Below are positions 15,112-15,250 of a stretch of 64,000 nt of DNA, in pieces (within the stretch, counting starts at the first letter, position 1; every line of letters starts with the position of its first letter). Both the position numbers and the translations under genes were made by a program. The notes under the pieces are model-generated. The model saw only the letters and a program-made list of their open reading frames with translations, searched no databases and was not told the origin of the DNA. This DNA is from Escherichia coli (lineage in GTDB: Bacteria; Pseudomonadota; Gammaproteobacteria; Enterobacterales; Enterobacteriaceae). Location of the stretch: NCBI RefSeq assembly GCF_048403405.1, contig NZ_CP183129.1. One strand, written 5' to 3'.

Positions 15112-15250
15112 GTCGGATCGGTCGCTCGCGGTGCATCCGACACTGGCAGTGTTGCCTGATGCGCCGCTATTCGCGTCTTATCAGGCATATACCAGAGATA
15201 GCGAACCATAGGTCGGATAAGGCGCTCGCGCCGCATCCGACAAATGTGTT
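15112..15250. repeat. REP/BIME cluster (three REP-like palindromic units)
   Basis: GTCGGAT..ATCCGAC and GCCTGAT..ATCAGGC palindromes between ruvB and znuB. Confidence 0.6.

Follow-up and report, generated by a model that had tools for sequence, protein, structure and literature searches.

REP units and BIMEs in the ruvB-znuB, pykA and yebF-yebE intergenic regions of an Escherichia coli chromosome

Six short imperfect palindromes, located at three intergenic sites in a 64-kb stretch of the E. coli chromosome (64,000 nucleotides, hereafter the window), are almost certainly classical E. coli REP elements (also termed PU) of the y and z2 types, arranged as a BIME-2 downstream of ruvB, a lone y unit downstream of pykA and a tail-to-tail BIME between yebF and yebE. 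The REP/BIME identity proposed in a first-pass annotation of this DNA is supported by (i) the match to the published consensus, (ii) the copy number of the repeat, (iii) the palindromic structure of the units, (iv) their conserved internal mismatch, and (v) the inverse orientation of the units, as a pair or a triplet, at two of the three sites. Nothing contradicts the identification. The literature already covers these elements and their types, as well as their K-12 positions and the cleavage of the main cluster by gyrase, and nothing in them is new; the hairpin clusters need no new explanation and may be masked as REP/BIME. The result is mainly a clean negative, which also assigns a precise position, type and orientation to six REP units in a strain that has no REPs in its RefSeq-style annotation.

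Six REP units at three intergenic sites

The window is syntenic with the K-12 MG1655 region at about 1.90-1.96 Mb, which runs in the reverse orientation. When 1.2 kb around the ruvB-znuB gap served as a query, a match was found in 5425 of 5426 complete E. coli genomes, and strain TUM14771 is 100% identical to it. For the earlier description of these clusters as typical of the enterobacterial core genome, the comparison covered E. coli. The gene order in TUM14771 is ruvA, ruvB (plus strand), znuB, znuC (minus strand), znuA, mepM, lpxM, an IS200C transposase gene and pyk (pykA), followed by hexR, zwf, edd, eda, purT, yebG, yebF, yebE, an ISEc46 element and ptrB, and the ORF map of the window is consistent with this annotation from 13.5 to 35 kb. 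The ruvB-znuB gap (149 bp) lies between the stop codons of ruvB (15109-15111) and znuB (15261-15263, minus strand) and is flanked by the convergent operons ruvAB and znuCB. The pykA stop codon is at 21080-21082 (minus strand), and the yebF-yebE gap (30137-30462) separates the yebF stop codon (30134-30136) from the yebE start (30463). All six units are extragenic, being located in the ruvB-znuB, IS200/lpxM-pykA and yebF-yebE gaps, and the only coding overlap among them is that of the tetranucleotide of unit 1 with the ruvB stop codon. They are imperfect palindromes of 34-37 nt (Table 1).

Table 1. REP units and linkers at the three sites, with mismatches to the REP consensus (of 29 specified positions) and predicted folding energies; minus-strand units are given in the minus-strand reading
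Feature	Position	Strand	Mismatches	kcal/mol (z)	Sequence
ruvB-znuB unit 1, y-like, decayed	15108-15141	-	7/29	-11.9 (-0.9)	GTCGGATGCACCGCGAGCGACCGATCCGACTTAC
Head-to-head linker, unit 1 to z2 unit, 12 nt	15142-15153				ACTGGCAGTGTT
ruvB-znuB unit 2, z2 type	15154-15190	+	2/29	-17.8 (-3.7)	GCCTGATGCGCCGCTATTCGCGTCTTATCAGGCATAT
Tail-to-tail linker, z2 unit to unit 3, 17 nt	15191-15207				ACCAGAGATAGCGAACC
ruvB-znuB unit 3, y type	15208-15241	-	3/29	-18.8 and -19.2 (about -4)	GTCGGATGCGGCGCGAGCGCCTTATCCGACCTAT
Lone y-type REP after pykA	21039-21072	-	1/29	-24.1 and -25 (-5.1)	GCCGGATGCGGCGAAAACGCCTCATCCGGCCTAC
yebF-yebE y-type REP, somewhat decayed, tail CCAC	30164-30197	+	5/29	-18.8 (-2.35)	GGCGGATGCGGCGCGAATGCCTTGTCCGCCCCAC
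Tail-to-tail linker, yebF-yebE BIME, 14 nt	30198-30211				AACGCACCACAATC
yebF-yebE z2-type REP	30212-30247	-	2/29	-19.6 (-5.5)	GCCCGATGCGACGCTGTTGCGTCTTCTCAGGCCTAC

The consensus of Stern, as quoted in the RepRanger paper, is GC(g/t)GATGGCG(g/a)GC(g/t)...(g/a)CG(c/t)CTTATC(c/a)GGCCTAC, and the same paper gives a later form of the REP consensus, GCCGGATGCGGCGTGAACGCCTTATCCGGCCTACGA (PMC12306157). Arms of the type GCCGGATG/CATCCGGC are visible by reading at all three sites. The first-pass annotation had named a REP consensus search as the way to check its proposal. This search was run over both strands of the whole 64 kb with GCCKGATGCGNCG, a loop of 0-14 nt and CGYCTTATCMGGCCTAC (29 specified positions), with 30 dinucleotide-preserving shuffles of the window as a chance control. 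Exactly six units matched with at most 7 mismatches out of 29, all of them at the three sites that had been proposed; their mismatches to the published consensus GC(g/t)GATGGCG.../GCCGGATGCGGCGTGAACGCCTTATCCGGCCTAC number 1, 2, 2, 3, 5 and 7 of 29. The three REP-like palindromes described after ruvB were thus borne out, the first of them as a degenerate copy, and the part of the yebF-yebE gap that had been singled out (~30150..30260) contains two units. A REP is also present where several units had been placed after pykA (21038..21076), but it is a single one.

The window contained five matches with at most 6 mismatches, compared with none in the shuffles, and eight with at most 8, compared with a mean of 0.83. 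These eight comprise the six units, the pykA palindrome as read on the opposite strand (21043-21076) and a match at 3151-3183 (8 mismatches), which was rejected as a REP since it is at chance level. Weaker matches with 8-10 mismatches (e.g. at 3151, 25233, 28720 and 33666) were also attributed to chance, because the shuffles yield 0.8, 5.3 and 29 matches at up to 8, 9 and 10 mismatches, respectively. The 13-nt half-site taken alone was matched 32 times, against an expectation of 13.5 +/- 3.5.

The repeat family was also recovered de novo, without the use of a consensus: a direct repeat family (D3) comprised copies at 15103, 15203 and 21034, and two inverted repeats (I1 and I5) joined positions 21038 and 15211 to 30160. 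A 6-nt-seed repeat search found no inverted repeats in the yebF-yebE gap, because mismatches interrupt the units there. The 151-nt stretch carrying the ruvB cluster recurred in 5425 of 5426 E. coli genomes, with a per-genome median of at least 40 matching places (the lowest value being 13), and almost all of these copies were chromosomal. Over the 50 kb of the K-12 MG1655 record that were examined, curated REP features were absent.

Within the ruvB-znuB cluster the orientation of the units alternates (-, +, -; y', z2, y), with linkers of 12 and 17 nt. Unit 1 is 73% identical to unit 3, which served as the reference copy of D3. On the plus strand its tetranucleotide is GTAA, not GTAG, and contains the ruvB stop codon TAA. 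Unit 1 is regarded as a REP remnant and not an intact element, because it is degenerate (7/29 mismatches) and its hairpin is weak (z -0.9). In plus-strand RNA, the inverted units flanking the 12-nt linker can also pair together. Unit 2 has the tail ATAT (CTAC in K-12), and the plus-strand tetranucleotide of unit 3 is ATAG (GTAG in K-12). The y units of the window are of the GCCGGAT/GTCGGAT type, and the z units, which have a long loop, are of the GCCTGAT type.

At the other two sites, the pykA REP is a lone unit that does not form a BIME; it has 13-nt arms that are 92% complementary and an exact GTAG (plus strand, 21039-21042). The two units of the yebF-yebE gap are located on the plus and minus strands, respectively, so that they are in inverse orientation and constitute a BIME. 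The z2 unit of this pair, also with an exact GTAG (plus strand, 30212-30215), is situated 215 nt upstream of the yebE start.

The ruvB-znuB cluster is a BIME-2. The z units described here are taken to be z2 and not z1 in view of the BIME-2 definition, the behaviour of this locus and the unit lengths, z2 being the longer form. The BIME-2 typing follows from the short linkers between alternating y and z units, the lack of an IHF consensus, the tandem amplification of the locus in other strains and a row in a published table (see below). In the linkers no IHF consensus was found, and the sole WATCAANNNNTTR match in the window, at 7896, is remote from the three sites. In a BIME-1, which occurs in single copy, y and z1 units are joined by a long L linker that includes an IHF site; in a BIME-2, which may be tandemly amplified, the linkers joining y and z2 units are short (PMC3333891). 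Single REPs such as that of pykA account for 84 of the 584 REPs of K-12 (PMC3333891).

Several mobile elements were observed in the same region. A copy of IS200C (~20238-20948) has inserted downstream of the lpxM stop codon (20237), ahead of the terminator hairpin of this gene (20952-20974). It contains tnpA (20345-20803, minus strand) and a leader RNA matching Rfam STnc490 (20813-20936, minus strand), and the hairpin at 20914-20936, inside the STnc490 match, is the IS200 end hairpin. The IS200C end is ~90 nt from the pykA REP; K-12 has the REP and the lpxM terminator, and lacks the IS. The insertion separates lpxM from its terminator, for which the end hairpin (20914-20936) together with TTTT may substitute. 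A second element of the IS200/IS605 family, annotated as ISEc46 (31286-32937), is located between yebE and ptrB, which in K-12 are separated only by a 208-bp gap. It carries a gene for a TnpB/InsQ RNA-guided endonuclease (31286-32455, minus strand) and tnpA (32512-32937, plus strand).

The left part of the window (1 to ~8400) is the end of a lambdoid prophage adjoining yecD, with genes for tail tip protein J, a Lom/Ail outer-membrane protein, a tail fibre and tail-fibre assembly. This prophage end is absent at that place from K-12 and TUM14771, and positions 1-9500 are covered to at least 80% in only 11 of 5426 E. coli genomes. The annotation of the near-identical TUM14771 gives torY as a pseudogene containing an internal stop, and the window has the prophage in place of that stretch. 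The prophage part contains an Rfam IS009 match (6050-6248, plus strand), a 231-nt direct repeat (6115-6345 and 7164-7394, 90% identical) and a family of 33-nt repeats (3056-3781) spaced by multiples of 21 nt. The antisense sRNA pair RyeA/SdsR (38689-38833) and a cspA-type thermoregulator leader (54322-54782) are present, as expected for this region.

Hairpin structure and alternative explanations

Five of the six units fold strongly on either strand (-17.7 to -25 kcal/mol, z -2.4 to -5.5). The exception is unit 1, which abuts ruvB: only its 7-bp outer stem is solid, and 36 of 200 shuffled sequences fold as well.

A structural alignment of 13 units (the six of the window and seven from the array of strain F11, described below) yielded a consensus hairpin of 12 pairs, with compensatory changes on both sides at three of them. 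The second pair is UA in six units, CG in six and GC in one, and the y and z arms differ in a paired fashion at two further positions. The internal mismatch (columns 8-9 versus 25-26, a G.U plus an unpaired C/U) is kept in nearly all 13 units. The tetranucleotide GTAG is exact in two of the six units of the window, one base off in three (GTAA, ATAG and GTGG) and two bases off in one (ATAT).

Hairpins that are rich in G+C and located at gene 3' ends might be ordinary Rho-independent terminators of ruvAB, znuCB, pykA and yebF, unconnected with any repeat family, and bidirectional terminators are common between convergent operons such as those flanking the ruvB-znuB gap. We consider this highly improbable. 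No stem leads into a T-run (the stems continue into ACAAATG, AACGTAC, CCACAAC and similar sequences), and a scan for intrinsic terminators and promoters found none in the three gaps, the few terminator matches all being within coding sequence. Moreover, the units match each other and the REP consensus, and the ruvB stretch recurs in at least 40 places per genome, which terminators do not. The real terminator-like hairpins in the vicinity, after lpxM (20952-20974) and between eda and purT (28068-28086), are different from the REP units.

The hairpin of the eda-purT gap is a short perfect palindrome, GCCCGATCCTCGATCGGGC (28068-28086), bordered on both sides by A-runs and T-runs. To judge from its sequence, it resembles an intrinsic terminator that serves both eda and the convergent purT. 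By its spacing it corresponds to an 18-bp interval filed as 'BIMEs2' in a published K-12 list; its stem is REP-like, but the two-half consensus scan did not match it.

Equally improbable, and in our estimate slightly more so than terminators, is the assignment of the palindromes to another repeat class or function, such as ERIC/IRU, BoxC, an IS-derived MITE, a small RNA gene or an operator, e.g. a Zur box for the znu operon. Elements of comparable kinds do occur in the window: IS200C with STnc490 (~20.2-20.9 kb), ISEc46 (31.3-32.9 kb) and RyeA/SdsR (38.7 kb). However, an Rfam search at gathering thresholds found nothing at the three sites, and units of 34-37 nt that match the REP consensus closely are far shorter than ERIC, which is about 127 nt long. 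The IS200 copy ends ~90 nt short of the pykA REP, which K-12 possesses without the IS. As for an operator, the ruvB-znuB gap is at the 3' ends of both operons, and hence offers no target for an operator acting at a promoter.

That the palindromes are unrelated chance structures of G+C-rich intergenic DNA, as the poor folding of unit 1 and the frequency of loose half-site matches (13.5 expected) might suggest, is refuted by the genome-wide dispersal of the ruvB-gap stretch and by the scan (five two-half matches at up to 6 mismatches against none in 30 shuffles), is at odds with the folding of the other five hairpins, their conservation in K-12 and the compensatory stem changes, and can be given practically no weight.

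Conservation and variation among E. coli strains

All six REP units are in place in K-12, where the corresponding regions are 95% (ruvB-znuB), about 97% (pykA site, compared by eye) and 98% (yebF-yebE) identical to the window. Since K-12 shares every unit within gaps that are 95-98% identical, the units are old residents of these sites and not recent arrivals. The ruvB/unit 1 junction, CCGTAAGTCGGAT, is identical in K-12, F11, 98194 and the strain analyzed here.

The number of units in the ruvB-znuB gap is variable. Strains F11 and E. coli C carry seven units in a perfectly periodic y-z2 array, in which (in F11) the 12-nt linker is repeated between each y and z2 and the 17-nt linker is present in each period. 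The span in O157:H7 strains fits about five units, and K-12 and most other strains, like the window, have three, these being rough proportions among the matches listed. Array size was judged from the record spans of the matches listed; by BLAST coverage, genomes with three units still reach 89%, as the repeat pieces overlap.

Two of the three z2 units of the F11 array (754-790 and 851-887) are chimeric, with a left arm of the z type (GCCTGAT) and a right arm of the y type (ATCCGGC). The result is a mismatch at this pair of the stem, which suggests that adjacent y and z units have recombined or undergone conversion.

In about 12% of genomes the ruvB-znuB gap was not contiguously covered. All three such genomes that were opened (98194, 2A and E13) contain IS1397 at one identical point, in the loop of the z2 unit, with the flanks ...GCCTGATGCGACGCTGTT / IS / ...ATGTTCGTCTTATCAGGCCTAC. 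IS1397 is among the insertion sequences that have been shown to target E. coli REPs specifically. The identical position suggests a single inherited event and not three independent ones. The polymorphism of the locus (three, five or seven units, or IS1397) could serve as a lineage marker.

In strain 98194, the third (y) REP of the ruvB-znuB gap (locus ~2935-3010) is in addition split by an insertion of ~60 nt, ATGCGGACTGCAGGCAGAGAAAACTGACCGATTTTCTCTGCACTGGAGGGATAATACAA, flanked by duplicated GGTCGGATAAGGC. This insertion is perhaps an IS remnant or a small mobile element that likewise targets REPs.

Possible roles and comparison with known systems

The first-pass annotation had concluded that REPs explain the hairpin-rich intergenic DNA without invoking other functions. 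The first part of this statement stands, but REPs are not free of function: documented roles of the family include gyrase binding, protection of mRNA 3' ends and effects on translation when a unit is close to a stop codon.

At the level of DNA, cleavage by gyrase has been documented for the K-12 orthologue of the ruvB-znuB BIME-2, situated between the convergent operons. The row 'BIMEs2 1947056 1947182 126 2 2 0 2 znuB>-<ruvB' is given in Supplementary Table DS3 of Sutormin et al. (2019; PMC6379681). The numbers of gyrase cleavage sites in this row are 2 (Cfx), 2 (RifCfx), 0 (Micro) and 2 (Oxo), for ciprofloxacin, rifampicin plus ciprofloxacin, microcin B17 and oxolinic acid, respectively (PMC6379681). 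Two further rows, located 5120 nt (29 bp) and 14296 nt (83 bp) from the znuB>-<ruvB row, have 0 cleavage sites (PMC6379681); from the spacing on the MG1655 map we infer that they represent the pykA REP and the yebF-yebE BIME. From these rows it follows that all three sites have already been catalogued for K-12.

The same study found that the BIME-2 class is enriched for gyrase cleavage, that REP-located signals tend to rise under rifampicin, that BIME-2s are strong, transcription-independent gyrase sites, and that y units are cut more often than z2 units (PMC6379681). By analogy with the K-12 orthologue, at which cleavage sites were still scored after rifampicin treatment, the ruvB-znuB BIME-2 of the window would be a preferred site of gyrase binding and cleavage between the two convergent operons; the map was obtained with a K-12 derivative (PMC6379681), whose ruvB-znuB BIME differs from that of the window at about 5% of positions.

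At the level of RNA, each unit would be transcribed into the 3' untranslated end of the ruvB, znuB, pykA or yebF mRNA and would fold into a G+C-rich hairpin devoid of a U-tract. As the gaps contain no intrinsic terminator, the transcripts presumably end farther downstream, probably by the action of Rho. The mRNA tail would then be trimmed back to the REP hairpin, which withstands PNPase and RNase II and would block 3'-to-5' exonucleases, so that the 3' end is set and stabilised, as is established for the family.

REPs located less than 16 nt from a stop codon lower the translation of the upstream gene, according to the account of Liang et al. (2015) given in PMC12306157. The units of the window begin 0 nt past the stop codon of ruvB (the stem of unit 1 starts at 15112), 7 nt past that of pykA, 19 nt past that of znuB (unit 3, minus strand) and 27 nt past that of yebF (unit 30164-30197). 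Since 0 and 7 nt are under the 16-nt limit, the ruvB and pykA REPs are candidates for such an effect by analogy, the ruvB unit forming a weak hairpin. A more specific proposal is that these two REPs act as translational attenuators, at which the ribosome would stall at termination and tmRNA trans-translation would follow, so that somewhat less RuvB (relative to RuvA) and less PykA would be made, and that the junction CCGTAAGTCGGAT is conserved by selection and not by mere inheritance; we regard it as rather unlikely. The supplements of the RepRanger, Ton-Hoang, Dar and Sorek, and naRNA papers contain no entries for these genes, and a full-text search of the literature for ruvB together with REP returned nothing relevant.

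In the accepted model, the origin, spread and amplification of the family are ascribed to TnpA_REP, the tyrosine transposase associated with REPs (PMC3333891). Binding and cleavage by this enzyme require the internal mismatch and a GTAG located 5' of the foot of the hairpin (Ton-Hoang et al., PMC3333891). In the ruvB gap the tetranucleotides are GTAA, ATAT and ATAG, and K-12 keeps GTAG/CTAC in two of the three units. Because all three GTAGs of this gap are altered, the ruvB cluster of the present strain is probably, to judge from its letters, a poor or inert substrate of TnpA_REP.

Comparison with known systems is consistent with the typing given above. Like Rho-independent terminators, the units are hairpins rich in G+C, are located where genes end and would shield mRNA from 3' exonucleases, but they lack a U-tract and are members of a dispersed repeat family. 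With BIME-1 (RIP/RIB) they share an inverted REP pair in an intergenic gap; they differ from it in that the linkers are only 12-17 nt long and have no IHF consensus, the z units are of the long form and the ruvB-znuB locus is tandem-amplified.

The REPIN and RAYT/TnpA_REP systems (Pseudomonas fluorescens; the E. coli REPtron) likewise feature inverted REP doublets with the capacity to form a single long hairpin, and such a doublet is there the presumed mobilisable unit. No RAYT gene is annotated from yecD to ptrB in the syntenic stretch of TUM14771, and the sites do not form a REPtron: the flanking genes are ruvB, znuB, pyk, yebF and yebE, and the only Y1 transposases are those of IS200C and ISEc46.

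The closest relatives are the BIME-2 and REP elements of E. coli themselves. The ruvB cluster shares with the BIME-2s described by Bachellier, by Espeli and Boccard, and by Sutormin et al. (2019; PMC6379681) the alternation of y and z2, the 12- and 17-nt linkers and the variable number of units; compared with BIME-2s elsewhere, the cluster of this strain is minimal, comprising three units of which one, at the end, is decayed. The six units agree with the E. coli REP or PU (Stern et al. 1984; Gilson/Bachellier nomenclature; PMC3333891, PMC12306157) in length (34-37 nt), internal mismatch, extragenic location and high copy number, as well as in the consensus GCC(G/T)GATGCG..CG ... CG(C/T)CTTATC(C/A)GGCCTAC and, in the best-kept units, the GTAG/CTAC tail. 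Several have the stem variant GTCGGAT...ATCCGAC, a compensated change from C-G to T-A, four of the six tetranucleotides are mutated and unit 1 is decayed, but nothing of substance distinguishes them from classical REPs.
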